From the NCBI GenBank assembly GCA_030651905.1, contig JAUSBS010000001.1, positions 1-51,121 on the forward strand: a stretch of DNA of 51,121 nucleotides, in the 5' to 3' direction. This document shows positions 1,831-51,067 of the stretch, piece after piece. Each line of letters opens with the position of its first letter. Within the stretch, counting starts at the first letter, position 1. The stretch is from Coriobacteriia bacterium. Lineage in GTDB: Bacteria > Actinomycetota > Coriobacteriia > Anaerosomatales > PALSA-660. The position numbers and the translations under genes were made by a program. The notes under the pieces are model-generated. The model was not told the DNA's origin, did no database searches, and worked only from the letters and a program-made list of their open reading frames with translations.

Positions 1831-2570
1831 CAGATGCCGACCGCTTCCCGGAAGTGACGGACCTCCCGGCGAGCCACCGGGATGTGGGTCTCGTCCCGGT
1901 CGGTGGCGACGACGACGTAGCCGCCGTCCATGCGCAGGATCTCCTTGATGCAGTTCATGTTGATGATGTAACTGCGGTGCATCCGGTGGAACGACTCGCG
2001 CGCGAGCTTCTTCTCCAGCTCGCCGAGCGTCATATCCACGAGGTACTGGTTCTCATACGTGTGCACGTAGGTCGACTTGTTCTTGGCCGAGACGTAGACG
2101 ATGTCGTCGATCGAGAGCAGGACCGTGCGCCCGCCCTTGCGGACGGCGAGCTTGCGGAACTCGCCCTCGGCGCCGCCGGCCGACTCGGCCGAGCGAACGC
2201 GGGTGTGCACAAGGCTGCGGACGCGGGCCGCCAGCTCCAGGATGTTGAACGGCTTGGTCACGTACTGCTGGACGCCTTGCTTGAACGCGAGGATCTTGGC
2301 GAGATCCTGCGTCTTGGCGGTGAGCATGATGACGGGGATGTCGGCCGTCAGCGGGTTGTTGCGGATCTCCATGAGCGCCATCCAGCCATCGACCTTCGGC
2401 ATCATGATGTCGAGAAGGATGACGTCGATGGGCTCGCGGGCGAGTACATCGAGTGCCTCGGCGCCGTCACCTGCGCTGGCGACCTTCATGCCGTCGGTCT
2501 CAAGACCGAGCCGGATCATCTCGACGATCGAGGGATCGTCGTCGACGCACAGGACGTTGATGGGCTCCAC
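1830..2570 (-). CDS. LytTR-family response regulator
   Basis: REC domain (VDDD, LLDIMMP, TKPF) plus LytTR domain (FHRMHRSYIIN, IPVARR). GTG start after GGAGG. Its stop overlaps the next ATG (TGATG). Confidence 0.9.
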   Translation of the reverse strand: MEPINVLCVDDDPSIVEMIRLGLETDGMKVASAGDGAEALDVLAREPIDVILLDIMMPKVDGWMALMEIRNNPLTADIPVIMLTAKTQDLAKILAFKQGVQQYVTKPFNILELAARVRSLVHTRVRSAESAGGAEGEFRKLAVRKGGRTVLLSIDDIVYVSAKNKSTYVHTYENQYLVDMTLGELEKKLARESFHRMHRSYIINMNCIKEILRMDGGYVVVATDRDETHIPVARREVRHFREAVGI

Positions 2571-2676
2571 AAGTGCCTCCAAACAGCGCCGCCGGCGCTC
2601 CCCTGCGACCGCGTCAGCGGTCACCTCTGGCAGGAGTATACCCGACGAACGGTCGCTCTGGTGCGCGCAACCCCCG

Positions 2677-4134
2677 CTAGGCCGAGCCAGCCAGCCACTC
2701 ATCGATGGCGCGAGCGGCCTTCTTGCCGGCGCCCATGGCGAGGATGACGGTCGCCGACCCGGTGACGATGTCGCCTCCCGCGAACACGCCCGGCTTGCTC
2801 GTCTCCCCGTCCGGACCCGCGACGATGTAGCCGCGGCTGTTGAGTTCGACGTCGGGAGCCGCGTTCGTCAGCAGCGGGTTCGCGCGAGTGCCCAGCGCGA
2901 TGATCACCGTGTCGCACTCGATCACGAAGTCGGAGTCCAGCACGCAGACCGGCGCCCGACGTCCGGACGCGTCCGGCTCGCCCAGCTCCATCCGCGTCGC
3001 GACCATGCCGGTCACCCAGCCGTCGCGCCCGACGATCTCGACAGGCGAGCACAGCATCTTGAACTCGACGCCCTCCTCGCGTGCATGGTGGACCTCCTCC
3101 TTGCGCGCCGGCATCTCCTCCTCGGTGCGGCGATAGACGAGGAAGACCTCGTCGGCGCCGAGACGGAGTGCAGTGCGTGCGGCGTCCATCGCCACGTTGC
3201 CGCCCCCGACGACCGCGACCTTGCGGCCCCGCCACACGGGTGTGTCGTGGCGCGGGAAGTCGTACGCTTTCATGAGGTTCACGCGGGTGAGGAACTCGTT
3301 CGCGGAGTAGACGCCGTTGAGGTTCTCGCCCGGGATGCCGAGGAAGAGCGGCAGTCCCGCGCCGGACCCGACGAACACGGCGTGAAAGCCCTGCTCGCCC
3401 ATGAGCTCGTCCACGGTGTGCGTGGCGCCGATGACGACGTCGGTCACGATCTCCACGCCCATCTCGACGAGCATCTCGACTTCCGCAGCGACGATCTCCT
3501 TCGGCAGGCGGAACTCCGGGATGCCGTAGAGCAGCACGCCGCCGGCGGCGTGCAGACTCTCAAACACGGTGACGGCGTGTCCCAGGCGCGCGAGCTCGCC
3601 CGCGCACGCGAGGCCGGCCGGGCCGGCGCCGACGACCGCGACGCGGCGCCCGGTGGGAGCACCGATGTCGGGACGGCAGCGGTGCTCGAGGTCGCAGGCC
3701 AGGTCCAGGTCGCCCAGGTAGCGCTCGAGGCGACCGATCGCGACGGGGTCGCCCTTTCGCGCGAGAACGCACGCGGCCTCGCACTGCTCCTCCTGCGGGC
3801 AGACGCGGCCGCAGGCCGAGGGCAGCGCGTTGCGCGCCTTGAGGACCTCCACGCCGCGCTTGGCGTCGCCCTCGATGATGCCGGCGATGAAGGACTTGAT
3901 GTCGATGTTGACCGGGCAGCCCTCGATGCAGGTCGGGTTCGCGCACTGCAGACAGCGCATCGCCTCAGCGTGCGCCTCCTCGTCGGAGTAGCCGAGGTTC
4001 ACCTCGTCGAAGGACTTCGCGCGCTGCTTCGCGTCCCGCTCGCGCATGGGCGTGCGGGGCGCGCGCGAGGCGCGATGGCGCGGCCTGTCGGCCGGCGCGG
4101 GAGCGTCAGCAGCGGGAGTCACTTGATCCGACAT
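2677..4134 (-). CDS. nfnB: NfnB/SudA-type large subunit (GltD-like NADPH oxidoreductase)
   Basis: RCLQC..C.EGCP, CGRVCPQEEQC, GAGPAG, GGGNVAMD and GGDIVTG motifs; lies directly downstream of an nfnA-like gene. Confidence 0.85.
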   Translation of the reverse strand: MSDQVTPAADAPAPADRPRHRASRAPRTPMRERDAKQRAKSFDEVNLGYSDEEAHAEAMRCLQCANPTCIEGCPVNIDIKSFIAGIIEGDAKRGVEVLKARNALPSACGRVCPQEEQCEAACVLARKGDPVAIGRLERYLGDLDLACDLEHRCRPDIGAPTGRRVAVVGAGPAGLACAGELARLGHAVTVFESLHAAGGVLLYGIPEFRLPKEIVAAEVEMLVEMGVEIVTDVVIGATHTVDELMGEQGFHAVFVGSGAGLPLFLGIPGENLNGVYSANEFLTRVNLMKAYDFPRHDTPVWRGRKVAVVGGGNVAMDAARTALRLGADEVFLVYRRTEEEMPARKEEVHHAREEGVEFKMLCSPVEIVGRDGWVTGMVATRMELGEPDASGRRAPVCVLDSDFVIECDTVIIALGTRANPLLTNAAPDVELNSRGYIVAGPDGETSKPGVFAGGDIVTGSATVILAMGAGKKAARAIDEWLAGSA

Positions 4135-4961
4135 GCGCACTCGCTCTCGAAATCGGCGGCGGCTTCGCGCTCGACGTCCGCGTAGACGCGCTGGCGGCTC
4201 ATGAGCTCCTCGAAATCCACGAGGTGCCCGTCGAAGTCCGGCCCGTCGACACAGCCGAACAGCGTCTTGGCGCCCACGCTCACGCGGCACGCGCCACACA
4301 TGCCGGTGCCGTCCACCATGATCGGGTTGAGCGACACCGTGGTCGGCACCGCGAAGTCACGTGTCGTGGCGGCGCAGAACTTCATCATGATCGCCGGGCC
4401 GATGGCCATGGCGTGGTCTATCGCGCCGGCCTCACACAGCTCCTTGAGCGGCGCAGTCACGAGGTCCTTACGGCCCGCGGACCCGTCGTCCGTGCACACC
4501 ACGAGCTCCTTGAGCGGCAGCGCCCGGAACTCGTCCTCGAGGATCAGCAGCTCGCGGTTGCGGGCGCCGAGGATGACGGTCACCTCGTCGCCTGCCGCAG
4601 CCATCGCCCGCGCCACCGGATACGCCACGGCGGCGCCGACACCCCCGCCCACCACAGCAACGCGTCCGAGTCCACCGACGTGGGTCGGCTTGCCGAGCGG
4701 TCCGACGACATCCAGCAGCGCGTCTCCGGCCGCGAGGTGCGACAGCTTGTGTGTCGTCTTGCCGACGCGCATGAAGATGAAGCGGACCCAGCCCTCATCG
4801 GACGACCAGTCCGAGAAGGTGAGCGGGATGCGCTCGCCGGCCTCGTCCACGCGAAGGATGAGGAACTGCCCCGCGCGTACCTTGGCCGCGATCGCGGGCG
4901 CTGAGACCGTCGTCTCGAAGACCGACTCGGAGAGCTGGCGCGTGGCGATGATCGGGAACAT
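4119..4961 (-). CDS. nfnA: NfnA/SudB-type small subunit (FAD, 2Fe-2S)
   Basis: GERIPLT, GPLG, GGGVG and DGTGMCGACRV...CVDGPDF motifs. Confidence 0.85.
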   Translation of the reverse strand: MFPIIATRQLSESVFETTVSAPAIAAKVRAGQFLILRVDEAGERIPLTFSDWSSDEGWVRFIFMRVGKTTHKLSHLAAGDALLDVVGPLGKPTHVGGLGRVAVVGGGVGAAVAYPVARAMAAAGDEVTVILGARNRELLILEDEFRALPLKELVVCTDDGSAGRKDLVTAPLKELCEAGAIDHAMAIGPAIMMKFCAATTRDFAVPTTVSLNPIMVDGTGMCGACRVSVGAKTLFGCVDGPDFDGHLVDFEELMSRQRVYADVEREAAADFESECACRIK

Positions 4962-5068
4962 GCGGGCTTCGGCTCACCTTTCGTGTTCGAATCGCCGCCT
5001 TGAAAGGGCTGCGAAGGGACGTGTCAGTATACTAGGCGGGTCGATGCGGCGGGTGAAGGGGGCGGGGT

Positions 5069-6163
5069 GTGAGCAGGAGGAGGAGCGTCGCGCTCGGGCT
5101 TCTGGCGGCATCGTGCGCCGCAGTCCTCACACTGACCGCGTGCGGGGTCTCCGCAGGCCGGCCCGTCACCGTCAGTCGCGAGGTCCTCGGAACCGTCGTC
5201 ACGATCACGGTGTACGGTTCCGACGATGTCGCCACGCGCTCGGGCGCCGAGGCTGCCTTCGCAGACATGATGCGCGTGGAGGCGCAGCTCGATCCGTACG
5301 ACACCACCTCCACGATCGCGACCCTCAACGCCGCGCCGTACGAGTGGCACGACCTTCCGCCCGACGCCGCCACGATCTTCGACCGCGTGGGGAAGCTCGG
5401 GGTCACCGCCCAGTTCTCGCCGGCGCTGCTGGCCATCACCAACCTCTACGACTTCGGCGGCCGAGGCTCCGTGCCCGCGAGCGACCAGCTCGCGGTGGCC
5501 GTCGTCCAAGCGCAGGGTTTCGCGCGCGACGGTGCGCGGGTCCGCTTCGCGCCGGTGGCCTTCGCGCCCCCGCCGCCCGGCGCGGAGTCCAGCAGCGCGG
5601 CGTCGACCAACAACACCCTGCGCCCCGGCCTCGACTTCGGCGGCGCGGCCAAGGGACTCGCGCTCGACCGCGCCATGGAGCGGCTTCGCGCAACGCCCGG
5701 CATGACCGGCGCGATGATCACCGCCGGTTCCAGCACGCAGGTGTGGGGCCGGAAGGGCGACGGCGAACCCTGGCGGATCGGCATCGAGGATCCTCGCGCC
5801 ACGGGCAAGGTCGTCGCGGTCATCGGCGCACAGGCGCCCGACGTCTTGAACCTCTCCACGTCGGGCGACTACCAGCTCTTCTTCGACCGGGGCGGCGTGC
5901 GCTACCACCACATCCTCGACCCGGCCACCGGGCGTCCGGCCCGCGGTCTTCGCTCGCTCACGGTCTACGGGAACGTGTCGGGCCTGGACGCGGACATACT
6001 CTCCACCGCGCTGTTCGTCGCCGGCCCGGACGCGGCCAAGGAGTGGACGCAGCGCAACGGCGTCGGCCTCTACGCCATCGACCACCGAGGACGCGTCATC
6101 GCAGTCAGCGCTCCGAAGGGCGCGAACGTCACCTTCGAGCGGACGGCTTCGCCCAGGAAGTAG
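5069..6163 (+). CDS. apbE: FAD:protein FMN transferase lipoprotein
   Basis: Lipobox LTAC; LDFGGAAKG, WRIGIEDP, STSGDY, HHILDPATG and ADILSTA motifs. Confidence 0.92.
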   Translation: MSRRRSVALGLLAASCAAVLTLTACGVSAGRPVTVSREVLGTVVTITVYGSDDVATRSGAEAAFADMMRVEAQLDPYDTTSTIATLNAAPYEWHDLPPDAATIFDRVGKLGVTAQFSPALLAITNLYDFGGRGSVPASDQLAVAVVQAQGFARDGARVRFAPVAFAPPPPGAESSSAASTNNTLRPGLDFGGAAKGLALDRAMERLRATPGMTGAMITAGSSTQVWGRKGDGEPWRIGIEDPRATGKVVAVIGAQAPDVLNLSTSGDYQLFFDRGGVRYHHILDPATGRPARGLRSLTVYGNVSGLDADILSTALFVAGPDAAKEWTQRNGVGLYAIDHRGRVIAVSAPKGANVTFERTASPRK

Positions 6164-6184
6164 CGCGACCGTACACGCGCAACG

Positions 6185-6223
6185 CGAAAGGAGCGGCCAC
6201 CATCTCGGCGGCCGCTCCTTTCG
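6185..6223. terminator. Bidirectional intrinsic terminator
   Basis: CGAAAGGAGCGGCC-N11-GGCCGCTCCTTTCG between convergent genes. Confidence 0.8.
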
Positions 6224-6242
6224 ATCGCAACTCCAGCGAGTA

Positions 6243-6605
6243 CTAGCTGGGGTTGACCCACTGCTTGATGAAGCCGGAGACGACCGGCACGTCGAAGTCC
6301 TCGCCCTTCCATGCCTTGAGCGTGTAGACGACCAGGACGATGAAGACGATCGGGTAGATCAGCAGCCCGATGAGCACTGCCGAGGTCACGCTGGCGACCA
6401 GGTAGCCGATGATCGAGAACGCGGCGCCCTGAAGGACGTGCTTACGGAGCCACGGCTCGTTCTTGTACGGATCGAGGAACAGCGCGATCAGTCCCCAAGG
6501 AGCGAACAGGTAACCGCCGAACGCCGCGATCGCCTTGCTGTTGTCGCTCGCGGGCCCCCCCATCGACACGGGGGCGGGCGGGGTCATGCCGGTACCGTCA
6601 GTCAT
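6243..6605 (-). CDS. DUF4870-like small membrane protein
   Basis: Three hydrophobic segments; pattern SKAIAA..GY, KH..Q, KAWKGE.FDVPVV; GGAGGG SD. Confidence 0.75.
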   Translation of the reverse strand: MTDGTGMTPPAPVSMGGPASDNSKAIAAFGGYLFAPWGLIALFLDPYKNEPWLRKHVLQGAAFSIIGYLVASVTSAVLIGLLIYPIVFIVLVVYTLKAWKGEDFDVPVVSGFIKQWVNPS

Positions 6606-6762
6606 CGCAGTCCCTCCGTTTCACACGTACCTTGTCGGATCGTCGAAATGCGCTCTCGTTTGCGACACACCCTCTACGAGAGATACTATAGCGGGTGTAT
6701 ACCACACCGCGTGGCATTCGTAGAGCCAGTCGCAGCCAGCCCGCAGGAGATGATTCGCAGTA

Positions 6763-7971
6763 ATGCGTCGCACAACGCCGCTGGGCATCCTCCTCGTCGC
6801 CGTTCTCGTTTCGGCGTGCGCCCTTCCGGGCGTGGCCCTCGCAGCCACGAACGCGGACCTCTACGCTCACCAGCGCGCCGCCGATGAGGCCCGCAAGAAG
6901 GCCGCGGCCGAGCAGAAGCTCGCAGACGCGCTGCTGGCCCAGACGCGCAAACTCGAGTCCGAGATCCAGGTGATCGCGGGCGAGGTCACCGCTCTCGAAG
7001 GTGAGATCGGCACCGCCTCCGAACGCCGGGCACGCCTTGAGCAGGAGATCGGCCTGTTGCGCGGCAGTATCGACCTCAAGCAGCAGCAGATCGAGTCCGT
7101 GAAGCAGGACTACGAGGTACAGACCGACGCACTCGCGGCGCGCGTCGACGCCACCTACCGCTCGGGGGAGTGGGTCTTCATCGACTGGCTCCTGTCGGCC
7201 GAGTCGATCCCCGATCTCCTCGATCGCACCGCCATGGTCCAGCGGATCATGGAGAACGATGAGGAGATAGCGGACGGTCTCGAGAGCGACCGCATCGTCC
7301 TCGAGCGAGCCGAGCAGGAGCTCGCGCGCACGCTCGACGAGGTCTCGACGAAGCGTGCGGAGGTCAAGGCCGAGGAGGACCGCCTGGAAGGTCTGCAGTC
7401 GATTCGCAACAGCAAGCTCAAGGCCGAGCAGTCCGCGAAGAACCAGAAGACCGCCCTGCTCGCCGAGACCAAAGAGAACATCGCGCGGCTCAGAGCGATA
7501 GCGGCCGCGGAAGACCGGGAGTCCGCTCGCATCGCCGCGATGCTCAAGGGCGGCTCATCGCACGGCTCGGGTCGCTATGCCGGTTCGATGGCGTGGCCCT
7601 GCCCCGGCTACACGCGCGTGAGTTCCCAGTTCGGCATGCGCTACCACCCGATCCTGCACTACAACCGCATGCACGCCGGCATCGACGTGAGCGCGCCCAG
7701 CGGTGCGACCCTGGTTGCGGTAGGCTCCGGCGTCGTCGTCTCGGCCGGGGTGAGCGGCGGCTACGGCAAGTGCGTAATGATCGACCACGGTGACGGCCTC
7801 GTGAGCGTCTACGCCCACATGAGCCGCATCTCGGTGTCGAAGGGCCAGAAGCTGGTCACCGGGCAGTCGATCGGCGCGGTGGGCTCCACGGGGCTCTCGA
7901 CGGGCCCGCACCTGCATTTCGAGATCCGCGTGAACGGTAATCCGGTCAACCCGCTCGGCGGCTACATCTAG
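6763..7971 (+). CDS. Secreted coiled-coil M23 peptidoglycan endopeptidase (EnvC/CwlO-like architecture)
   Basis: Signal peptide, long coiled coil, then HAGID, YAHM and STGPHLHFEIR motifs. Confidence 0.9.
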   Translation: MRRTTPLGILLVAVLVSACALPGVALAATNADLYAHQRAADEARKKAAAEQKLADALLAQTRKLESEIQVIAGEVTALEGEIGTASERRARLEQEIGLLRGSIDLKQQQIESVKQDYEVQTDALAARVDATYRSGEWVFIDWLLSAESIPDLLDRTAMVQRIMENDEEIADGLESDRIVLERAEQELARTLDEVSTKRAEVKAEEDRLEGLQSIRNSKLKAEQSAKNQKTALLAETKENIARLRAIAAAEDRESARIAAMLKGGSSHGSGRYAGSMAWPCPGYTRVSSQFGMRYHPILHYNRMHAGIDVSAPSGATLVAVGSGVVVSAGVSGGYGKCVMIDHGDGLVSVYAHMSRISVSKGQKLVTGQSIGAVGSTGLSTGPHLHFEIRVNGNPVNPLGGYI

Positions 7972-24154: not shown

Positions 24155-24258
24155 GTACCCCCCGATCCTTCTCACATGGGATGCCGTCCGCCCATGCAGA
24201 GCGGGCCCGGCTACAGATGATACGCCTGCCGCCCAGGGCATGCGGGCGCGTGTGCGCG

Positions 24259-24753
24259 TCAGTAGTCCCAGACGACTCCGCGCGCCTTCATGAGTCCCAG
24301 GTCGCGCATCTTGGCCATCATGTCGCTCTCCGAGACGGCGAAGAGGCGGGCCAGATACCGGTAGTCGTTGAACCACTTCGCGGCCTGTTCGCGGACCATG
24401 TACTCCGGCATGACGAACTCCTCGGCCATCGTGTCCGCGAGCCGGTGATCGCCGGTCGTGTCCCGAGGGTAGGGAGTAGCAGGGTCGTCGATCCTCACGA
24501 GGATGTGCGAGAGCATGTGCGCGAGGGCGTCCCGGCGGCTCTCGGGGGTACTCGAACCGTTGAGCAGGATGACCGGAACACCACCTTCGGAGACGATCGC
24601 ACCGGTGAACCACGCCGGGAAGGCCACGGTCATCGTGGGCACGCCGAGGATGGCCGCAGCGTCGTCGACCGACACAGGCGGCTCGATGGCGCCGGCGCGC
24701 CGGAGTTGGGCCTCTACGAGTCCCTTGTAGTGGGCATCCGACGTGAGTGGCAC
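24259..24753 (-). CDS. ImmA/IrrE-like protein with degenerate HExxH (HMLSH); start uncertain
   Basis: PPV.VD..A..LG, ILLN, R..LAH.L.H, A..FVMP and LA.LFAVS family pattern. Confidence 0.8.
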   Translation of the reverse strand: MPLTSDAHYKGLVEAQLRRAGAIEPPVSVDDAAAILGVPTMTVAFPAWFTGAIVSEGGVPVILLNGSSTPESRRDALAHMLSHILVRIDDPATPYPRDTTGDHRLADTMAEEFVMPEYMVREQAAKWFNDYRYLARLFAVSESDMMAKMRDLGLMKARGVVWDY

Positions 24754-24830
24754 GAAGAGAAGCGACCCTCCAAAGGAGAAGCGACGCACAATTGCATCGT
24801 CTCATGTATCGGCATTGCGGATAATGTAGT

Positions 24831-24856
24831 AACAGTCCGCCTACAACAGTCCGCCT
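24831..24856 (+). repeat. 12-bp direct repeat AACAGTCCGCCT x2
   Basis: Copies at 24831-24842 and 24845-24856 in a divergent intergenic region. Confidence 0.85.
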
Positions 24857-24905
24857 GCGGCGGGCGATGCCGATACCTCTCGTATAGGTCCTTCCGGGAA
24901 GGCGA

Positions 24906-26825
24906 ATGATGAGCGGGCAGGTGCAGCTTCGCGCTGAGGAGGTCGTCCGTGCGCTCGCGGCCGCAGCGGCGGCCGTGCGCCTGTACCCGCCCACCAGCGA
25001 GATCCCCGCCCAGACCGTCCAGAGGTTCGTCCAAGTGAGCGAGGCCGTCACGCTCGCAGCTCGCGGACCGGTCCGGTTCGTCGTCGAGCCGAAAGCCTTC
25101 AAGCTCGGGGACCAGATCGTCGCCGAAGGACAGGCGCAAGTCACCGGACTCGCCGAGATGCTCTACGCGCACCAGGTCGGCCAGCTCATCGTCGCGCCGG
25201 GACTCACGGCGGACGAGACGAACGCGTTCCTGCGCTGCGCCGGCTCGGACGCCTCGGCGGTGCGTGAGGAGGGTGGCCTGCGCGCCGTCATCGTCCAGGC
25301 CGGAGTCTCGCAGCTCGCGGTCATCGAGGTCACGCTGCGCGCATCCACCGACGAGGGCCTCGCCGGGCTCGACCTCACGTCCGCGCCGCTCGACGCGATC
25401 GGCCCTGCGGTACTCCGCTCGGCCGCATCATGGGCCCGCTCCGCAGCGTCCGGCGAAGGGCGGGACGAGATCGGCGAAGTCATCAACGGCCTCGAATCGG
25501 CCGCTCGGGAACTTGCCGCCGAGCGCGTCGCCGCCGCTCTGCTCCAGCTCGACGAGGCCACGCGCGCCGCCGTTCTGGCGGCGGCTATCCGCCCTGACGC
25601 AGGCGGTCGCGTCATGGAGGGCGCGCTGTCGGTGATCGCGAACATGCGGCCGGCCACACTCGCCAGACTCATGACGCTCGCCGCCGCGCGCACTGGTGGC
25701 GACGCGGGCTCCATCATGTCGAAGCTGGAGCTGGGGCCCGAGGCCATGCGCGCTCTCGAGTTACTGCTCCGCCCCTCGCCCCGGACCGAGGCCGAGTCGG
25801 GAGTCCCCCCGGTGATCGATGCCTCGGCCATAGCGAGCGACGCGGTCGCCGAGACCGAGGACGACGACGAGGCCATGGCCATGGTGCTGGCGACCCGCGA
25901 CCCAGCGGGTGAGGCGGTGCGGGCGCTCGCCACGACGATGTGCATCCTGGACCGTGGGGCGACCGCCGAGTCCATCGAGTCGGTCGGCGAGGCGATGCCT
26001 CGAGCGGTGGCGGCCGGCGCGTTCCCGCTCGTCCGCACAGCCCTCGCGCAGCTCGACATCTTGACCGACCGTCCGGAGCTGCAGGACGCGGTGGAGCGCG
26101 CGCGACGGGCGTCCGCACAACCCGAAGCGCTCCTCGAGGGCCTGCTTGCGCTCAGCGATGCACCGAAGGCACGCGACGCGGCGGCCGTCGCCGCGGCAGC
26201 AGGAGTGGTCGGTGCCGAGGCCGTCGTCGAGGCCTGGCTGCTCTCCTCCGAGGCCAAGCGGCCCTTGCTGGTCGAGATCGGTCGCGCGATGCCCGAGCAG
26301 TTCATCGCGGCCACGGGGCGCCGGATCCGCGCGGGCGACCCCGTCGAGGTACGTGAACTCGCGGGGATGCTGGGCCGTCTCGGCGACCGTCGTTCGGTAT
26401 CGGTACTCTCCCTGGCGCTGGACCACCAGGCGCGCGAGGTCAGGCTCGCCGCGATAGCGGCACTCGAGACCATCGACGCGGAGGAGTCCTGGGCGGCGAT
26501 CATCAGCGCACTGACCCATCCCGATGAGACGACGGCGCGCGCCGCCCTCGAGACGATCCGAAGGACCGGAAGGCGTCGCGCGGTCCCTGCGATGCTCGCG
26601 GTACTGCAACTGCGGACATCGGGTACGAGGAATCACGACCTCAAGCGCGAAATCATAGAGGACGTGCGCACTATGGGCGCTACGGAGGCGATCCCCGTAC
26701 TCAAGCGGATAGCATCGAACCGGCTGACGTTCCGCCGCAAGCCGCGCGAGTTGCGCGACGCGGCACGCCGAGCAGTGACGGACCTGCAAGCGGCCGAGCA
26801 GGCCGACGGAGAGAAGGTGCGGTAA
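24906..26825 (+). CDS. HEAT-repeat protein with N-terminal 'LYP' domain
   Basis: Ala-rich helical protein; C-terminal HEAT/PBS-like repeats (LGRLGDRRSV..L...L, VRLAAIAAL, ALTHPDE.TARAAL). Confidence 0.8.
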   Translation: MMSGQVQLRAEEVVRALAAAAAAVRLYPPTSEIPAQTVQRFVQVSEAVTLAARGPVRFVVEPKAFKLGDQIVAEGQAQVTGLAEMLYAHQVGQLIVAPGLTADETNAFLRCAGSDASAVREEGGLRAVIVQAGVSQLAVIEVTLRASTDEGLAGLDLTSAPLDAIGPAVLRSAASWARSAASGEGRDEIGEVINGLESAARELAAERVAAALLQLDEATRAAVLAAAIRPDAGGRVMEGALSVIANMRPATLARLMTLAAARTGGDAGSIMSKLELGPEAMRALELLLRPSPRTEAESGVPPVIDASAIASDAVAETEDDDEAMAMVLATRDPAGEAVRALATTMCILDRGATAESIESVGEAMPRAVAAGAFPLVRTALAQLDILTDRPELQDAVERARRASAQPEALLEGLLALSDAPKARDAAAVAAAAGVVGAEAVVEAWLLSSEAKRPLLVEIGRAMPEQFIAATGRRIRAGDPVEVRELAGMLGRLGDRRSVSVLSLALDHQAREVRLAAIAALETIDAEESWAAIISALTHPDETTARAALETIRRTGRRRAVPAMLAVLQLRTSGTRNHDLKREIIEDVRTMGATEAIPVLKRIASNRLTFRRKPRELRDAARRAVTDLQAAEQADGEKVR

Positions 26826-28304
26826 GTGAGCGACAGCGACACCGGTCCCGACCGTCTCGAGACACCGGAGGAGATGGCGGCAGCGACCTCGGCGGCCTCC
26901 CGCTCGCCGTTCTCGAGCGCCAAGCGCCTCGCACGCGCCAAGGAACTCGTGCGCGCCATAGCCGTGGCGGCGACGAACGCCGCTCTCTATCCCGCGACCC
27001 ACCCGAGCGTCGCGCAGTCCATGGACGACCTCGTCGCGGCCGTCGGTGGCGTCATCGAGCTCGGATTCGAGGACGTCACGGTCAACATCTACAAAGCGAC
27101 GCTCTTCGTCGAGGACCATGTCCTCCCCGAGGAGAGCACCACCTACGGGAAGCTGGTCGACGACTTGCTGGCCCGGGGTATCTCGGCGATCACGTTCTCC
27201 GAGGACTTCGCCCGCAACGACGCCGAAGCGTTCGTGGCCCTCATGGGCACGGACGGCGTCAAGGACATCACAACCGCGCTGTCCTTCCTCGACCAGCGCG
27301 GCGCGACAAACGTCGCGGTGGCAGAGACGACGACCTTGGCCGACGAGGACCGGGGCGAGGCCAACAAGGAGACTCGGGACAAGGCCCGCAAGCAGTACGA
27401 GACCGGCGTCACCGCGATGCGCGACGTCGAGACCCAGGTCAAGCTCGGGAAGGTCTTCGAGATCGGGCCGCTGCAATCCCTCGTCAACGGCCTTCTCGAG
27501 ACGCTGTTCCGCGACCCTGCGGCTGTCCTCGGCCTGACCGCCATCAAGAGCCATGACGACTACACGCTCAACCACTCGATCAACGTGTGCATCCTGTCGC
27601 TGTCGCTGGGAACCACGCTCGGGCTGGACGAGGAGTCGCTCAAGTCCCTGGGTCTTTCCGCTCTCCTCTACGACCTGGGCAAGGTGCGCATCCCCGAGGA
27701 CATCCTCAACAAGGAGGGCCCTCTCACCGCGGACGAGTGGCAGATCGTGAAGAGTCACGCGGCCGAAGGCGCCGACTTGCTCAAGCGCATCCAGCTCATG
27801 GACCAGATGCCCATGATCGTCGCCTACGAGCACCACCAGCGCCACGACCTAAAGGGCTACCCGGACATCGGCGAGCCGCAGGAGCAGCACCTGTTCTCGA
27901 AGGTGGTCGCGCTGTGTGACGCGTACGACGCCATGACCACTTCACGGCCGTTCCGGCGCGAGATCCGGCCCGACAAGGCGCTGGCCGTCCTCATGCAGGG
28001 TCGCGGCAAGGCCTACGACCCCTCTATCACCAAGGGGTTCGTGGCGATGCTCGGCATCTACCCGATGGGCGCCGTCGTCAAGTTGTCCGATGCGTCCACG
28101 GCCGTCGTGTTCCGCGTGAACCGCGACGATCTGCTGTGCCCGCGGGTCAAGGTGCTGATCGACGCGGAAGGCCGCTGGGCCGACGAGCCCGCAATCCTCG
28201 ATCTGCGGATCATCGACCGCGGCACGGGGAGCCACTCGATCACCATCTCGGAGTGCATCCCCGCCGCCGACGCGGGCATCGACGATGTCTGGGAGTACCT
28301 CTAG
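26826..28304 (+). CDS. HD-GYP domain protein (degenerate YD)
   Basis: HDDYTLNHS.NV, LLYDLGK, ILNK.GPLT..EW, HHQRHDLKGYP, DAYDAMT..RPFR and YP.GAVVKL motifs. Confidence 0.9.
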   Translation: MSDSDTGPDRLETPEEMAAATSAASRSPFSSAKRLARAKELVRAIAVAATNAALYPATHPSVAQSMDDLVAAVGGVIELGFEDVTVNIYKATLFVEDHVLPEESTTYGKLVDDLLARGISAITFSEDFARNDAEAFVALMGTDGVKDITTALSFLDQRGATNVAVAETTTLADEDRGEANKETRDKARKQYETGVTAMRDVETQVKLGKVFEIGPLQSLVNGLLETLFRDPAAVLGLTAIKSHDDYTLNHSINVCILSLSLGTTLGLDEESLKSLGLSALLYDLGKVRIPEDILNKEGPLTADEWQIVKSHAAEGADLLKRIQLMDQMPMIVAYEHHQRHDLKGYPDIGEPQEQHLFSKVVALCDAYDAMTTSRPFRREIRPDKALAVLMQGRGKAYDPSITKGFVAMLGIYPMGAVVKLSDASTAVVFRVNRDDLLCPRVKVLIDAEGRWADEPAILDLRIIDRGTGSHSITISECIPAADAGIDDVWEYL

Positions 28305-28316
28305 GGACGAGCTCGA

Positions 28317-28628
28317 TCAGTAGAGCGCGCCCTCCGCGGACCCGAAGTCGGTGTCCGCCGGCATGCTCAGCGAATCGAGCTCCTTCTGCATGGCATCGAG
28401 TTGCTGGTCCATCGCCTTGATCTCCGATTTGGAGGACCCGGGCGTACCGGCAGCAGGTAGCGCGATCGGGCTGACGTCAGCGGACGACGTCGACTGCGCG
28501 CTGGATGTCGCGGTGGTCTCGAGGGTCCCGCGCGCGCCGTCCGTGGCGGGAGTCCCCGCACAACCTACGAGCATCGCGCCCAGCGCGAGTGCCAGTGCGC
28601 CGGCCAGTACGGCGGTACGCATCGTCAC
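28317..28628 (-). CDS. Small lipoprotein
   Basis: Lipobox LVGC, Ser/Thr linker, short C-terminal coiled coil. Confidence 0.75.
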   Translation of the reverse strand: MTMRTAVLAGALALALGAMLVGCAGTPATDGARGTLETTATSSAQSTSSADVSPIALPAAGTPGSSKSEIKAMDQQLDAMQKELDSLSMPADTDFGSAEGALY

Positions 28629-29167
28629 TACTGTGCGCCCTCCAGGCCGTTCACCACGGCGCGAAGGTCGAGGATCGCCTTGCGCAGTGTGGTGCGTGCC
28701 TCATGCAGCAACCGGCGAGCGATCTTCGCTTGTGCCTTGGCGGCTGTGAACGCGGCGCGCCTGTCGGTCGCGGTCGGGACGGCCTTGAACAGCTCATCGG
28801 CCGCGGCATCGGCGGCCTTGGCCTCGGCGACCAGCGCGCGAGCCTTGTCGAGCGACGCGCGCACGTCGGTCACATCGGCGCCGGCCGACTCCACCTTGCT
28901 GGCGATGACAGACACGCGATCGATGCGGCGAAGGATCGCCGCGGCGGCGGCATCGAAACCACGGCCGCGGTTCTCGAGCACCTTCGTGATGCGCTCCTGC
29001 AGCCTCTGCTGCCGCATATCGAAGCGCGCCTGACGTGTGGCGTCCATGGACGACTTCGGCTTGCCGAGCCTGCCGCGGCCAGGGACCGCGAACGCCGCCG
29101 CGGGGGCGATGAGCATGGCTACGAGCGCGAGTGCGATCGCGGCCTGGATGGTTGTGCGGCTCTTCAT
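28628..29167 (-). CDS. Secreted basic helical/coiled-coil protein
   Basis: Signal peptide (AFA/V), Ala/Arg-rich helices, AAGGAG SD. Confidence 0.75.
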   Translation of the reverse strand: MKSRTTIQAAIALALVAMLIAPAAAFAVPGRGRLGKPKSSMDATRQARFDMRQQRLQERITKVLENRGRGFDAAAAAILRRIDRVSVIASKVESAGADVTDVRASLDKARALVAEAKAADAAADELFKAVPTATDRRAAFTAAKAQAKIARRLLHEARTTLRKAILDLRAVVNGLEGAQ

Positions 29168-35814: not shown

Positions 35815-35929
35815 GTGCCGCAGTATGGTAGCCGCGTCGCGCATAAGGGGTCAAGGCGGGCGCCGCATCCCATATACTTGTGCCCACCGGGATCCCGGTG
35901 GGGGCGATCAGGTCCACGCGAGGCGACAG

Positions 35930-37972
35930 ATGGCAGACGAGCAGACCCCAGAACGACCCGCAGGAAGCGGCGTCCCGTTGGCGCGCTCCCTCGCGCTGAG
36001 TGCGGTCGGCCTGCTCCTGGCGGGCGCCGTGCTCTACGCCGTCAGCATCTACAGCTTCCCCGTCTTCCACGGGCTGATCGAGCTGTTCGCCGCGTCTACC
36101 GCGCTGGCCATCTTCTTCGTCGCATGGCACTCCCGACGCTTCCTCGATAACGCATACGTCGGCATCGTCGGCGTGGCGTACCTCGGCGTCGCGATCATCG
36201 GCGTCCTTCACACGCTCGCGTACAAGGGGACGAACGTATTCCCGGGAACGTCCAACGACCTCGCGACCCAACTGTGGCTCGCGGCCCGCTACGTCGCCAC
36301 CCTCGCTTTCCTTGTCGCACCCTTCTTCGTGAACCGCCGGGTGGACCTGCGCGCCCCACTTCTGGGCTTCTCCGCGCTCACGGCAGTCCTGCTGGCCGCG
36401 ATCTTCCGCGGAGCCTTCCCGCCCGTCTTCGTCGAGGGAGTCGGTCTCACGGCGTTCAAGATCGGTGTGGAGTACGTCGTGGTGGTCGCCCTCATGGTCG
36501 CCTTCGTCCTGCTCGTCAGGGTCCGCGCCTCCTTCGATCAGCGGGTCTTCCTCCTGCTGTGCTGCTCGATCGCGATGAGCGTCGGCGCAGAGATGGCGTT
36601 CACCCTCTACGCAGATCCGTTCGGGCCGGCGAACCTCGGAGGTCACTTCCTCTACGCAGGCGCCGCGTTCCTCGTCTATCGAGCGCTCGTACACGTGGCT
36701 CTCGAGGACCCCTACGCCGTCCTCTTCCGTCGTCTGAAACAGCGCGAGGAGGACCTGCAACTCGCGAACCGGTTGAGCGAGGCGCTGACGCGGATCGTCT
36801 CGGGGATAGCGTCGACCCTGGACTCGCAGGCGATACTCGAGCGGGTCGTGGTCTTGGCCGCCACGACGATCGGCGCGGACGCGGCGGCGGTCAGCGCGCC
36901 CGACGACGACGCCTGGGTCGTTCGCTCCGTGCACAAGCATCCCCCCGACGTGATCGGCACACGGCTCACCGCCGCCCAGTCGGCGCACATCGCCGCAGCC
37001 GTCGCCAGCCGCGAGGTGCTGGTGGTCGAGGATACGTCGATACCCGGCATCTTCAGCCGGCAGCTCGCGGCCGACTACTCGATCGGCGCCCTGCTCACGG
37101 TACCGCTCACGGTCCGTGACGAGCCCATCGGCGCGCTCTCGTTCCACTTCCACCGCCCACATCACTTCCGCGAGATCGAGCTCGACTTCGCCCGGAAGCT
37201 CGGCAGCGCGGTCGCGCTGGCGGTCGAGAACGCGCGACTCTACGAGACCGAGCACGAAGTGGCGGAGACGCTGCAGGCCGGATTGCGCCCGCAACTCGAG
37301 GACGTCGCCGGCGTCGAAGTGGGCTGGTCGTATGAAGCCGCGCCCGGGGTCGGTCGGCTCGGCGGCGATTTCTTCGACGTGTTCGCGATCGATGGGACGC
37401 GCGCGGCATTCATGATCGGTGACGTGGCCGGCAAGGGCATCAAAGCGGCCACGACGACAGCCACCGTGCGCGGCGCGGCGCGTGCTCTGGCCTACGTCGA
37501 CTCCGAACCCGTCACGGTGCTCAACGGGCTCAACATGACCCTCGCCCGCCGCGGTCTGGACGCGGGATTCGTCACACTGCTCTACGGCACGCTCGACGTC
37601 GTATCAGGCTACATGCGGCTCGGCATCGCGGGCCATCCGAGCCCGTATCTGTGCGACCGCCGCGAGCAGCCCGACTACGAGCACGCGATCGATCCCCCGC
37701 TCGGCCTGTTCCCGGAGCGGACCTACCACTCCGTCGACGTTCAGCTGGCGAAAGGCGAGCGTTTCATCATGTACACCGACGGCCTCATCGATGCACGCAG
37801 CGACGGTGTCCCGTTCGGCGAAGAGGGAGTGTATCGCGTGCTCGCCGAGGACACCGAGATGTCGGTATGGGAGCTCAGTTCGGCGCTGGCGGAAGCTGCA
37901 GCGGCCCACACCGGCGGCAACCGGGTGCTCGACGACGTCGCGGTCCTGGCGATCCGCTTCGTGGGCAGGTGA
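35930..37972 (+). CDS. MASE3-GAF-PP2C (RsbU/SpoIIE-type) membrane phosphatase
   Basis: MASE3 pattern (FH..IELF, HTLAYKG, QLWLAARY), GAF domain, then GGDFFD, GDVAGKG, YTDGL and DDVA. Confidence 0.9.
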   Translation: MADEQTPERPAGSGVPLARSLALSAVGLLLAGAVLYAVSIYSFPVFHGLIELFAASTALAIFFVAWHSRRFLDNAYVGIVGVAYLGVAIIGVLHTLAYKGTNVFPGTSNDLATQLWLAARYVATLAFLVAPFFVNRRVDLRAPLLGFSALTAVLLAAIFRGAFPPVFVEGVGLTAFKIGVEYVVVVALMVAFVLLVRVRASFDQRVFLLLCCSIAMSVGAEMAFTLYADPFGPANLGGHFLYAGAAFLVYRALVHVALEDPYAVLFRRLKQREEDLQLANRLSEALTRIVSGIASTLDSQAILERVVVLAATTIGADAAAVSAPDDDAWVVRSVHKHPPDVIGTRLTAAQSAHIAAAVASREVLVVEDTSIPGIFSRQLAADYSIGALLTVPLTVRDEPIGALSFHFHRPHHFREIELDFARKLGSAVALAVENARLYETEHEVAETLQAGLRPQLEDVAGVEVGWSYEAAPGVGRLGGDFFDVFAIDGTRAAFMIGDVAGKGIKAATTTATVRGAARALAYVDSEPVTVLNGLNMTLARRGLDAGFVTLLYGTLDVVSGYMRLGIAGHPSPYLCDRREQPDYEHAIDPPLGLFPERTYHSVDVQLAKGERFIMYTDGLIDARSDGVPFGEEGVYRVLAEDTEMSVWELSSALAEAAAAHTGGNRVLDDVAVLAIRFVGR

Positions 37973-37977
37973 GCGGC

Positions 37978-39207
37978 GTGAGCGACGCCGACCGCGAGTC
38001 CCTCCGGACCGCGCGCGCGCAACGCCAGCGAGATGCGCGGCGAGCGAGGACGAAGCGCACGCTGATGGTCTGCGCCTCCGTCGTGGGCGTCGCGCTCATG
38101 GTCGGAGCCGCCTACGCCGCGTGGACGGTGTTCGCTTCCACCCGGACCACCCGGACCGCACTCGCCGCACCGGTGGCCCCGAGCGTCGCCGGAGCACCCA
38201 CCATCGCGCTCGCGACGCTGCAGGCGGCCGCACTGGCCGCGCGCGACGACACGCTGACGGTCATCGCCGTCGGCGACCTGCTGTTCTCGCTAGGGCCGGC
38301 GAGCCTCATCAAGAGCCAGGGGGGCGCCGCGCCGCTCGCAAAGGTCGCCGATCTGCTCAAGGACGCTGACATAACCATCGCGAACCTCGAGTGTCCGCTG
38401 TCCACCCGCGGCGTCAAGGTCGGCGGCAAACCCGACCACCTCATATTCAGAGCCCCGCCCCAAGCCGTGGAGAGCCTGACGACGGCGGGCGTCGACATCG
38501 TCGCCCTGGCGAACAACCACATGATGGACTACGGCGCGCCCGCCATGGAGGACACGCTGCGCACGCTTGACACCGCCGGCGTGGCGCACGCGGGCGGCGG
38601 CATGAACAAGGCCGACGCATGGAAGCCCGCGATCGTGGAACGCGAAGGCAAGAAGGTCGCCTACCTGTCGTTCACGCAGCGCATCCCGTCGTACTTCATG
38701 CCGACGGCATCGACACCAGGTATCGCGTCGGGCAAGGACATGCGTGCCGTCATCGCCGCGATCCGTGCCGCGAAGACACAGGCCGACTACGTCATCGTCT
38801 CGTTCCACTGGGGCGTGGAACAGGCGTACGAGGTCAACGCCGGGCAAGTCCGAGACGGGAGAGCGGCGATCGACGCCGGCGCCGACATGGTGCTGTCACA
38901 CCATCCGCACGTCATGCAGGGAGTCGAGTTCTACAAGGACAAGCTCATCGCGTACTCGCTCGGGAACTTCCTGTTCCCGTACAAGACGACCGAGGGACGC
39001 AAGTCGTTCATCCTCAAGGCATCACTCGGCCCCAGCGGCGTGACGGATGTGACCGCGGTCCCGGTCTACATGGGCGAATGGGGCCGCCCGACGGTTCAGA
39101 CGGGCAGTAGTGCAGCGGGCATCCTCGGCAAGCTGAAGGCCATCTCCGCACCGCGCGGCGCGAACGTGATCATCGAGGGCGACAGGGCGCGGATCGTACC
39201 GAAGTAG
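37978..39207 (+). CDS. CapA/PgsA family metallophosphatase-fold protein
   Basis: VGD, ANLE, LANNHMMDYG, HWGVE, HHPHV and YSLGNF motifs; N-terminal TM. Confidence 0.92.
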   Translation: MSDADRESLRTARAQRQRDARRARTKRTLMVCASVVGVALMVGAAYAAWTVFASTRTTRTALAAPVAPSVAGAPTIALATLQAAALAARDDTLTVIAVGDLLFSLGPASLIKSQGGAAPLAKVADLLKDADITIANLECPLSTRGVKVGGKPDHLIFRAPPQAVESLTTAGVDIVALANNHMMDYGAPAMEDTLRTLDTAGVAHAGGGMNKADAWKPAIVEREGKKVAYLSFTQRIPSYFMPTASTPGIASGKDMRAVIAAIRAAKTQADYVIVSFHWGVEQAYEVNAGQVRDGRAAIDAGADMVLSHHPHVMQGVEFYKDKLIAYSLGNFLFPYKTTEGRKSFILKASLGPSGVTDVTAVPVYMGEWGRPTVQTGSSAAGILGKLKAISAPRGANVIIEGDRARIVPK

Positions 39208-48947: not shown

Positions 48948-49946
48948 GTGCTCTATCCGCTGAGTCGCATCTGGAATCCGGCCGTCTACCAGGGCGGCGC
49001 ACGCACGCGGCGCTACTTCGAGGGCTGGTACCTGAAGCTGGTCGACGCCGACGGGCAGCACCCGCTCGCGCTCATCCCCGGCGTCTCGTTCTCCGCGGAC
49101 GGCTCCACACGCCAAGCGTTCGTCCAGCTCGTCAGGCCCGGCGGGACCGGACGGTACTTTGCTTACCCGGCAGATGCCTTCACCTTCACGAAGGACCGCT
49201 TCCGTATCGCGGTCGGAGACAGTCGTTTCGCCGAAGACGGGCTGGATGTCGACCTTCGCGATGAACACGGCGGCGTCTCCGGTTCGGTCCGGTTCGGCCC
49301 TTGGTCGCCCTGGCCGGTGCGGCCGCTGTCACCCGGCGTCATGGGCTGGTACCGCTTCGTGCCCGGGATGGAGTGCTACCACGGCGTCTTGTCCATGGAC
49401 CACTCCCTTTCCGGCACCCTCGTCGTCGACGGCGAAGTGCTCTCCTTCGACGGTGGACGCGGCTACGTCGAGAAGGACTGGGGCGCGAGCTTCCCGAGTT
49501 CGTGGATCTGGGCCCAGTCGAACCGCTTCGCCCGCCCCGGCGTCTCGGTGTCCGCATCCATCGCGCGCGTCCCGTGGATGAACGCCTCGTTCACGGGATC
49601 GATCGCGGGTCTGCTCCTGGACGGCGAACTGCACCGCTTCACGACGTACACGGGCGCCAAGCTCGCCTGCCTCAAGACGCGACCGGGCGAGGCCGACGTC
49701 GTGCTGCGTGACGCACGCGCGGAACTGGAGCTTCACATACAGGGCGCGGCCGTATCCGCGCTCAGGGCGCCGACTCTGGGTTCGATGGAGGCGCGAGCCG
49801 ACGAGGCCCTCGATGCGAACATCCACGTGACGCTTCGGACGATCCGCGGCGGTCGCGCTACCACGGTCTTCGACGCGGAAGGCCGCAGCGCCGGCGTCGA
49901 GATCATGGACGAGCGCGGCGAGCTGGAACCGGCGCCCCGCCCCTAG
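48948..49946 (+). CDS. Tocopherol cyclase family protein
   Basis: YFEGWY.K, MGW, MEC.HGV.SM.H and GYVEKDWG.SFP..WIW.QSN motifs. Confidence 0.88.
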   Translation: MLYPLSRIWNPAVYQGGARTRRYFEGWYLKLVDADGQHPLALIPGVSFSADGSTRQAFVQLVRPGGTGRYFAYPADAFTFTKDRFRIAVGDSRFAEDGLDVDLRDEHGGVSGSVRFGPWSPWPVRPLSPGVMGWYRFVPGMECYHGVLSMDHSLSGTLVVDGEVLSFDGGRGYVEKDWGASFPSSWIWAQSNRFARPGVSVSASIARVPWMNASFTGSIAGLLLDGELHRFTTYTGAKLACLKTRPGEADVVLRDARAELELHIQGAAVSALRAPTLGSMEARADEALDANIHVTLRTIRGGRATTVFDAEGRSAGVEIMDERGELEPAPRP

Positions 49947-51067
49947 TAGTAGCCGGGGTACATCCGCTTGCAGAAGGTGCGATATGTCAGCATGCGTGCG
50001 CGGTCGGCACGGCTGATGCGTCGATCCGGTGTGCTCAGCGCCCGGTCGATGAGAACCGTCCGATAGGTCGCGCTGCCCGCGCCGGGCGTGCGATCGCGGA
50101 ACACCGGAAGGACGCGGAGGTTCGAGACCGACGTCCCCTCGGCGCGCTTCGTCACCTTCGCCGTGACCATCGTCCCGAGGTCCGTGAGCCGCTTGGACTG
50201 GCCGCTGATGAAGTTGCCCATCGAGTAGACGATGTAGCGCCCCCGGTAGAGCTCCACGGGACGGACCACGTGGGGGTGAGAGCCCAAGACCAGGTCCGCT
50301 CCGCTGTCGATGAGGTAGCGCCCCTGCGCGCGAGTCCGGCTCTCGACTGTCGTCTTGTACTCGGAGCCCCAGTGCACGAAGACGACGACGATGTCGACGC
50401 TGGGCCGGACAGCCTGGATGTCGGCGCGCATCCGGGCGAGGTTGATGCGGTTGACCGCGCCGGCGAACGGGCTTCGGATGCCGTTGGTGGCGTAGGTGTA
50501 GGAGGCGAACGCGACCTTGATGCCGTTGCGCTCCGCGATGATGGGCGCAGGGTTGTTCGAGCCGAAGTGCGCCAGTCCGATGCGATCCAGGTAGCTCGTT
50601 GTGAAGCGGACCCCTCGCGCGCCGCCATCGAGGGTGTGGTTGTTCGCCGTGGAGAGCACGTCGAACCCGGCCGCCTTGATGGCGTCGGCGAACTGTCGCG
50701 GTGACTTGAACGCCGGGTAGCCCGAGTAGCGTCGATCCGACAGCGTGGTCTCGAGGTTGCCGACGGCGAGGTCGGCAGCCGAGATGGTGTCGGCGACTGG
50801 CGCGAACGCGGCCGTGAACGAGTAGCCGCTGCGCGTCTTGGCCGCCTTGAGTTGTGCGGCGTGACACATGATGTCGCCGACGGCCAGCAGCGTCATCGAC
50901 GGTTCGACCGAGGGCGACGTATCTCCGGACGCAAGGACCTCGGCGGTCATGACGGGCGCCTCAGGCCCCGCAGCGAGCGCGACGACCGGCGAGAAGAGGG
51001 TGCTTCCACCGGAGGCGAGCGTGAGCACCGCCGCCAGTACCAGCGAGACCGACCTTCGACCCATCAT
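49943..51067 (-). CDS. CapA/PgsA family protein (second paralog)
   Basis: VGDIMCH, GNLET, ANNHTLD, HWGSEY, GSHPHV and YSMGNF motifs; signal peptide. Confidence 0.92.
   Translation of the reverse strand: MMGRRSVSLVLAAVLTLASGGSTLFSPVVALAAGPEAPVMTAEVLASGDTSPSVEPSMTLLAVGDIMCHAAQLKAAKTRSGYSFTAAFAPVADTISAADLAVGNLETTLSDRRYSGYPAFKSPRQFADAIKAAGFDVLSTANNHTLDGGARGVRFTTSYLDRIGLAHFGSNNPAPIIAERNGIKVAFASYTYATNGIRSPFAGAVNRINLARMRADIQAVRPSVDIVVVFVHWGSEYKTTVESRTRAQGRYLIDSGADLVLGSHPHVVRPVELYRGRYIVYSMGNFISGQSKRLTDLGTMVTAKVTKRAEGTSVSNLRVLPVFRDRTPGAGSATYRTVLIDRALSTPDRRISRADRARMLTYRTFCKRMYPGYY

Follow-up and report, generated by a model that had tools for sequence, protein, structure and literature searches.

A HEAT-repeat protein and an HD-GYP protein with homologous N-terminal domains: a candidate two-protein signalling unit in Coriobacteriia

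Two abutting genes with a common N-terminal domain

We analysed a 51,121-nucleotide stretch of DNA from a Coriobacteriia bacterium (the window), which is one contig (C97) of a 1.88-Mb genome assembled in 130 contigs, at 96.5% completeness. Two adjacent genes on its plus strand, here called A and B, encode proteins that begin with similar domains (the N-domains) and carry HEAT repeats and an HD-GYP domain, respectively. Gene A (24906-26825) encodes 639 amino acids (P0001), comprising the N-domain, a helical middle part without assignment and C-terminal HEAT repeats of the PBS type; gene B (26826-28304) encodes 492 amino acids (P0002), comprising the N-domain, a helical linker, the HD-GYP domain and a C-terminal extension of ~80 residues. 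A first-pass annotation, made from the letters of the window, had described the genes as abutting, with the TAA of one followed at once by the GTG of the other, and both open reading frames (ORFs) were recovered at these coordinates with TAA-GTG at 26823-26828. The junction as a whole (26809-26828, plus strand) comprises a Shine-Dalgarno-like GGAGAGAAGG lying 7 nt 5′ of the GTG of B, the TAA of A and the abutting GTG. The start position of B is the same in its orthologues, which align over their full length at 63-71% identity, and the GC content at third codon positions (GC3) of gene A is 0.85. A scan of 24200-28800 returned zero sigma-70-type promoter sites and one terminator-like site, on the minus strand at 24799-24782. 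The nearest protein relatives are labelled as products of uncultured Coriobacteriia metagenome-assembled genomes, and A orthologues carry the label 'HEAT repeat domain-containing protein [Coriobacteriia bacterium]'; the public sequencing runs with this stretch amount to one groundwater metagenome, from which the DNA may itself derive, and no RNA run is listed.

The N-domains of A (residues 9-154; 24930-25367, plus strand) and B (residues 37-180; 26934-27365, plus strand) share 26% identity over 146 residues in a single BLASTP comparison (E 5e-6). Comparison of alignments by hhalign gave 97.7% (E 1.6e-12) for the three A against the three B paralogues of this genome, and 99.6% (E 1.4e-24, 134 columns) when 32 N-domains of each type, drawn from 16 genomes, were compared. 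The likeness of the two N-termini, which the first-pass annotation had aligned by eye and proposed to check by hhalign, is thus confirmed as homology at the sequence level, the similarity lying far beyond chance. A Tyr-Pro pair is invariant across all 64 N-domains of either type, and each type adds invariant residues of its own: Leu and Ser in A-type copies (L-Y-P..S; LYPPTSEIP at 24981-25007 in the window) and His-Pro in B-type copies (Y-P..H-P; LYPATHP at 26985-27005).

The HEAT-repeat region of A spans about residues 449-610 (26250-26735, plus strand). Pfam HEAT_2 matches residues 531-604 with E 4.8e-6 and 27.2 bits, slightly below the cut-off of 27.7, and residues 449-571 match alphaRep/HEAT chains of the PDB with E values down to 2.6e-19. 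The two paralogues of A in this genome reach scores of 32.2 and 63.7 bits for HEAT repeat profiles (PF13646 HEAT_2 / PF03130 HEAT_PBS), and 54 of 87 relatives have HEAT matches over E 1e-4. Together with the HD_5 match of B described below, the HEAT_2 and alphaRep matches bear out the original naming of the pair. The repeat type is that of PBS-lyase-type HEAT proteins (NblB, CpcE) and of alphaRep designs. Membership of the NblB/CpcE families themselves is not indicated, however, as A scores 19 bits against NCBIfam cut-offs of 300-330 and the window holds no sign of a phycobilisome. To our knowledge, the N-domain is not known in PBS-lyase-type HEAT families.

Neither Pfam nor NCBIfam has a model over the shared N-domain at E <= 1, in keeping with the initial impression that it belongs to no named family. 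The only nearby Pfam signal lies behind the domain, where residues 171-214 of B match the tail of DUF3391 (PF11871; profile positions 86-134) with E 0.054 and 14.5 bits against a cut-off of 27.8; Pfam gave no DUF3391 match on residues 37-170 of B, on A or on the two paralogous pairs, and no GAF match in B at E <= 1. An AlphaFold2 model of the B N-domain (m3a749d9facf7), built on the 64-sequence alignment, is confident, with a predicted local distance difference test score (pLDDT) of 90.4 and a predicted template modelling score (pTM) of 0.84. In the model, a helix (2-21), a turn bearing the Tyr-Pro pair and a second helix (27-44) are followed by three short strands, a helix, a strand, two helices and a final strand.

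Searches with the whole model against the PDB by Foldseek returned nothing at E <= 1e-3 (best E 0.31, TM 0.2), and comparison with 48,161 chains by VIA-align gave a best Z of 8.0 that aligns solely the 48-residue helical hairpin. The alpha/beta part folded alone (pLDDT 87.1) reached a best Z of 3.2 against the same chains, with 0 at Z >= 5, and a best Foldseek E of 0.73. GAF chains appear among the Foldseek matches of the N-domain at E 0.3-1.4 and TM 0.15-0.27; 3tm8, the DUF3391 structure, is not among the Foldseek or VIA-align matches listed, which does not imply its exclusion. The N-domain profile likewise found nothing meaningful among PDB sequences, matching one artificial protein (E 0.0014 over 41 residues) and two others at E > 1. 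In the ESM Atlas, residues 30-185 of B came closest (0.82) to unnamed clusters labelled Gemmatimonadota and Thermodesulfobacteriota, with a DUF3391 cluster at 0.77, which we take as a lead only. Judged from these models, the N-domain has no recognised fold among solved structures, although newness of the fold is not thereby proven; it appears to be an uncatalogued unit of ~140 residues, predicted to consist of a helical hairpin with the invariant Tyr-Pro at its tip and a small alpha/beta unit.

The available text of Galperin and Chou (10.1101/2021.11.05.467447) describes the HD-GYP families RpfG (with REC), Bd1817 (with DUF3391) and PmGH (with GAF), plus six associated domains. B can be compared with the Bd1817 family (DUF3391-HD-GYP; 3TM8; PA4108, VC2497), whose members are cytoplasmic HD-GYP proteins that likewise have an N-terminal domain of ~120-140 residues of unknown function and a helical linker, and residues 171-214 of B weakly resemble the helical tail of DUF3391. 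Unlike in that family, however, the sub-cut-off match lies behind the N-domain and not on it, and the modelled domain begins with a helical hairpin and goes on as beta3-alpha-beta-alpha-alpha-beta, whereas the same available text describes DUF3391 as beginning with four beta-strands, after which come two long helices. The HEAT partner also sets B apart, as that text mentions none for Bd1817: the word HEAT occurs 0 times in it, and its supplements may hold relevant alignments.

Conservation, duplication and fusion of the pair

Two further A-B pairs are found in the same genome, both on the minus strand of their contigs: one on C41 (A at 3808-5790, B at 2489-3811) and one on C33 (A at 4838-7054, B at 3423-4841). 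We surveyed 120 further genomes of the class with a six-sequence N-domain profile, 52 of them from the same Coriobacteriia order and 68 from other orders. The domain was matched in all 52 genomes of the order, always in even numbers (two copies in 1 genome, four in 18, six in 30 and eight in 3), and in 0 of the 68 genomes from other orders. The total of seven in the genome under study is odd because of a fragment at the end of contig C56 (L014, 2733-3239), which nearly equals the beginning of the A gene on C33 in sequence and likewise lies next to Maf; it probably reflects strain heterogeneity or a duplicate collapsed in assembly. In a set of 20 fetched regions and the three loci of this genome, B directly follows A on the same strand for 32 of 32 A genes, and in 32 fetched pairs the A stop and B start mostly overlap by four bases or abut.

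A maximum-likelihood tree of 64 N-domains (32 A and 32 B) separates A and B clades at 100/96, and each half recovers the same three orthogroups (I, II and III) that are given by pairing, all six groups being monophyletic. The match between the two halves indicates a single origin of the pair, followed by duplication of both genes together. Within the orthogroup of the window (III), A orthologues are 38-43% identical. In relatives (L029, 5158-11066), pairs I and II are divergent and lie ~6 kb apart, separated by genes for Maf, a methyltransferase, an amidohydrolase, two PspC-domain proteins, a LiaF-like protein and a CNNM/CorC transporter. Since the ends of C33 and C41 (L013, L012) hold the outer genes of this pair I/II block, the two contigs are probably neighbours.

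A survey of 300 further genomes of the phylum found N-domain matches in 45 of the 301 counted, mostly as pairs ~2 kb apart; this count includes the genome of the window, and becomes 43 of 299 without G202 and G369, which are flagged as unpublished. Among 1.84 billion representatives, the N-domain profile matched 6317 clusters (50% identity) at E <= 1e-3, of which 1656 reach E <= 1e-10. Pfam assigned HEAT repeats to 54 of the 87 best-scoring representatives, HD_5/HD to 6 and nothing to the remaining 27, which are mostly short; no other family appeared. Of 25 further proteins, 10 carry HEAT, 7 HD_5, 1 a partial HD, 4 nothing and 3 the combination GGDEF, AAA_16 and HEAT. These last belong to a class of giant proteins in which GGDEF and AAA_16 domains are joined to one or two N-domains and, where scanned, to HEAT repeats. 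One such giant, of 1278 residues, is encoded in an actinobacterial genome (L062, 4623-8459, minus strand) with an A-B pair 6 kb away; further ones come from records titled Planctomycetia (L069, 6001-10125), Candidatus Aminicenantes (L070, 5887-9534) and Eubacteriales (L072, 5965-9537). The spread of the domain beyond Actinomycetota is observed here for these GGDEF fusions only, and the fusions tie the N-domain module to cyclic di-GMP (c-di-GMP).

Tandem N-domains within one chain occur in 10 of 143 representatives: giants of the form GGDEF-AAA-N-domain-N-domain-HEAT, one HEAT protein of 957 residues and five proteins of ~300 residues. The five (P0076, P0079, P0092, P0118 and P0150) consist of just two N-domains and share their end position on the profile, on which basis they are probably complete stand-alone forms; no longer proteins homologous to P0076 were found at E <= 1e-10. 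Their first copy favours the A profile in 5/5 cases and their second copy the B profile in 3/5. Such fusions suggest that two N-domain copies work as a pair, and are the strongest indirect sign of this in our data.

A Tyr-Asp dyad in the HD-GYP domain of B

The catalytic-type domain of B (HD-GYP, PROSITE PS51832; residues 240-410; 27543-28055, plus strand) is matched by HD_5 (PF13487) with E 2.7e-25 and 89.5 bits against a cut-off of 27.2, by Pfam HD with 41.4 bits against a cut-off of 22, and by the structure of PmGH (4mcw) with E 1.6e-27. B resembles PmGH (GAF-HD-GYP) and canonical HD-GYP proteins in its conserved GYP, HH, Asp and Lys, but its N-domain is not a recognisable GAF domain and its HD dyad is changed: Tyr282-Asp283 (27669-27674, plus strand), within LLYDLGK, stands opposite the MHDIGK of 4mcw, a change that the first-pass annotation had not noted. 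The HHExx(D/N)GxGYP motif and the other His and Asp ligands are intact, namely EHHQRHDLKGYP (27828-27863, plus strand), which holds the HH metal ligands and the GYP motif, together with NH(250), KSH(312) and CDAYD(369).

We compared the active sites of 32 B proteins in the three orthogroups. In orthogroup III, to which the B of the window belongs, the dyad is Tyr-Asp (YD) in 8/8 proteins, and neither the remaining ligand positions nor the Lys and GYP are altered. The B proteins of orthogroup I are canonical in 14/14 cases, and those of orthogroup II keep the HD dyad with G[YFW]P and a two-residue deletion in 10/10, so that the dyad is present in all 24 members of orthogroups I and II, including the two paralogues in this genome. 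Constancy of YD in all eight orthologues, together with an identity of 63-71% for B against 38-43% for A, indicates that the B of the window is strongly constrained and not in decay. Since its dyad reads YD, it is probably not a standard phosphodiesterase; from its sequence, it is probably a nucleotide-binding or adaptor form, or one with an altered metal site. We found no paper that uses the term YD-GYP.

One version of this idea is that the B proteins of the YD-GYP orthogroup are catalytically inactive and act as c-di-GMP receptors or adaptors and not as phosphodiesterases, for which we would give somewhat less than even odds. Tyrosine can ligate iron in other metallo-phosphoesterases, which we count against inactivity, and it is unusual for a dead enzyme to keep H250, D283, H312, H336-H337, D369, the Lys of DLGK and GYP, as B does. 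Replacement of the dyad His by Tyr in 8/8 orthologues speaks for inactivity, as does PA2572 of Pseudomonas aeruginosa, which has a YN-GYP signature and, in the accessible text of PMC3774798, is described as inactive in c-di-GMP hydrolysis and yet regulatory. Inactive HD-GYP proteins often work through protein-protein interaction, according to the available text of 10.1101/2021.11.05.467447. B and PA2572 are alike in having Tyr for the dyad His with GYP kept, as far as that account of PA2572 goes, but PA2572 has lost the Asp too, whereas B retains it (YD, not YN), lacks a REC domain and has another N-domain and another partner.

A candidate scaffold-enzyme unit and its surroundings

We propose, at roughly even odds (a probability of about 0.5), that the products of A and B, coupled in translation, act together as a two-protein unit of c-di-GMP-type signalling that is joined through the N-domains. 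B would supply the HD-GYP domain, whose canonical members are phosphodiesterases, and A would serve as a non-enzymatic alpha-solenoid (HEAT) scaffold. The A-type and B-type N-domains would pair with each other, and the scaffold would thereby anchor, position or gate the HD-GYP protein that belongs to it; three pairs of this kind could operate side by side in one cell, insulated and free of cross-talk. The signal would be c-di-GMP or a related nucleotide; hydrolysis of c-di-GMP by B is a presumption taken from family membership. The genome has 11 GGDEF matches (9 of which score above 23.8 bits) and 10 HD_5 matches above the cut-off, which makes c-di-GMP signalling plausible in this organism. 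Docking of A to B through the N-domain, as the first-pass annotation had proposed, is likewise plausible, given the co-duplication of the pair and the tandem N-domain proteins. A complex prediction from the A and B N-domain alignments gave interaction prediction scores from aligned errors (ipSAE) of 0.01 and 0.02, where the mark is 0.32; it was run with no controls and counts neither way.

Of the two classes of c-di-GMP phosphodiesterases, HD-GYP proteins are less well understood, and we know of no signal for most of their input domains. They can act through protein-protein contacts, as in the complexes of RpfG, whose input is a REC domain, with GGDEF proteins; the proposed unit is similar in that an HD-GYP protein would act within a complex and the scaffold has relatives fused to GGDEF. 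It differs in having a partner with a shared domain, of which we know none for RpfG. Titles and abstracts of the literature yielded no published description of a HEAT/HD-GYP pair with a shared N-domain, and we regard the pair as a putative HD-GYP signalling system in which the domain is undescribed and the enzyme has a partner subunit of its own. The family is large, at 6317 clusters, and the enzyme in it is always accompanied by a dedicated non-enzymatic partner that bears a copy of the enzyme's own N-terminal domain; if the two copies dock, they would offer a simple genetic answer to how signals are kept apart among the many c-di-GMP enzymes of a cell. The 1.9-Mb genome, with its three diverged pairs, provides a natural test set for pairing specificity, and the conserved YD variant a test case for the role of the dyad His. 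Retention of the pair throughout an order, often in three copies, points to an unstudied two-protein signalling unit in groundwater actinobacteria. A bolder reading, which we hold only tentatively and consider less likely than not, would make the N-domain a new fold and a self-recognising, pair-specific docking module that builds insulated scaffold-enzyme complexes for local c-di-GMP signalling, three of them orthogonal within a cell of this order; the His-to-Tyr change in the HD-GYP domain of the window would mark a receptor or a new metal chemistry. As the giant relatives unite a diguanylate cyclase, a STAND-type ATPase and the scaffold by means of this domain, the module would in many phyla serve generally to connect HEAT scaffolds with the proteins that make and break c-di-GMP.

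Several points weigh against the proposed unit. The adjacency of A and B and their shared domain would also be expected from a common ligand or a common third partner. The substrate is assumed from family membership, and with YD for HD the predicted enzyme of the window may hydrolyse nothing. Under midpoint rooting, the three orthogroups branch in a different order in the A half of the tree than in the B half, for which reason we draw no conclusion on the sequence of duplication events. Moreover, the scaffold can occur apart from a neighbouring HD-GYP protein: Actinomycetota outside the order hold N-domain+HEAT proteins of 800-1300 residues whose genes lie among housekeeping genes and have no B gene beside them. 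These stand-alone proteins also suit the main rival, a minority possibility in our estimate but a substantial one, in which the N-domain binds the same small molecule or third protein in A and in B and the two respond in parallel without pairing. The N-domain of B precedes the HD-GYP domain, where known proteins carry REC, GAF or DUF3391 inputs (as given in the available text of 10.1101/2021.11.05.467447), and the Tyr-Pro at the hairpin tip is invariant in both types, as would be expected of a common sensor. Pair-specific recognition is nonetheless a better fit to three diverged pairs per genome whose A and B N-domains co-diversify; the tandem proteins suggest a domain that works as a pair, and no ligand-binding fold was recognised by Foldseek or VIA-align. 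Tandem N-domains would also be compatible with any dimerising domain, including one that serves homodimerisation in A and in B separately, with the two genes being neighbours only through a shared pathway. We consider such homodimers improbable, as they leave unexplained both the constant upstream HEAT gene with the same domain (32/32) and the distinct clades with type-specific invariants (S in A, H-P in B).

Two other roles for the pair fare worse than any of these. A function in anti-phage defence by means of a cyclic nucleotide would draw on the related giants, which join GGDEF, an AAA_16 (STAND-like) ATPase and HEAT repeats and of which one has a weak PADLOC HEAT-ARM match, and on the gene upstream of A, which encodes an M78/IrrE-like metallopeptidase domain protein of 176 residues (24259-24789, minus strand; Pfam Peptidase_M78, E 8.2e-8) with weak PADLOC matches to CapP/RmrA and with no helix-turn-helix partner seen. 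PADLOC-DB 2.0 families, however, are matched by 0 of the 6 proteins of the three pairs, including A and B, and the pair is not patchy but core, being present in 52/52 genomes of the order with conserved housekeeping synteny; we reject this reading as very improbable. The first-pass annotation had also raised a tie to a WhiG-type sigma factor, which the pair would feed through an RsiG-like, c-di-GMP-dependent anti-sigma factor. Beyond the general c-di-GMP theme nothing favours this idea, which is the least credible of those considered and is likewise rejected: the six Sigma70_r2 matches in the genome all lie off the contig of the window, and the 45 window ORFs scanned include no sigma or anti-sigma domain.

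The surroundings of the pair are themselves conserved in the orthogroup of the window. A DUF362 Fe-S protein, a ROK-family protein and the M78/IrrE-like protein, all divergent from A-B, precede the pair, and a histidine kinase and a response regulator follow it on the opposite strand. The ROK and M78 genes are found in 7/7 orthologous loci and the kinase lies inside the fetched range in 4/7. The M78 gene, divergent and upstream of A-B in 7/7 loci, represents conserved context only and is at most a putative member of the unit. In the 116-bp gap between it and A, ACAGTCCGCCT occurs in two exact copies 3 nt apart (24832-24856); the number of copies in the window does not exceed chance (two matches are reached in 38 of 100 shuffles), and the repeat is absent from the seven orthologous loci. 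Between B and the histidine kinase, two small ORFs of 103 and 179 residues (28317-29167, minus strand) have coding-like GC3 and no Pfam family, and in the first of them only a stretch of 30-37 residues is conserved, in 3/7 orthologous loci. Further along the window lie a gene for a MASE3-GAF-SpoIIE (PP2C) membrane sensor phosphatase (35825-37972, plus strand) and PGA_cap capsule-synthesis-like genes at 37651-39207 and 49943-51067.

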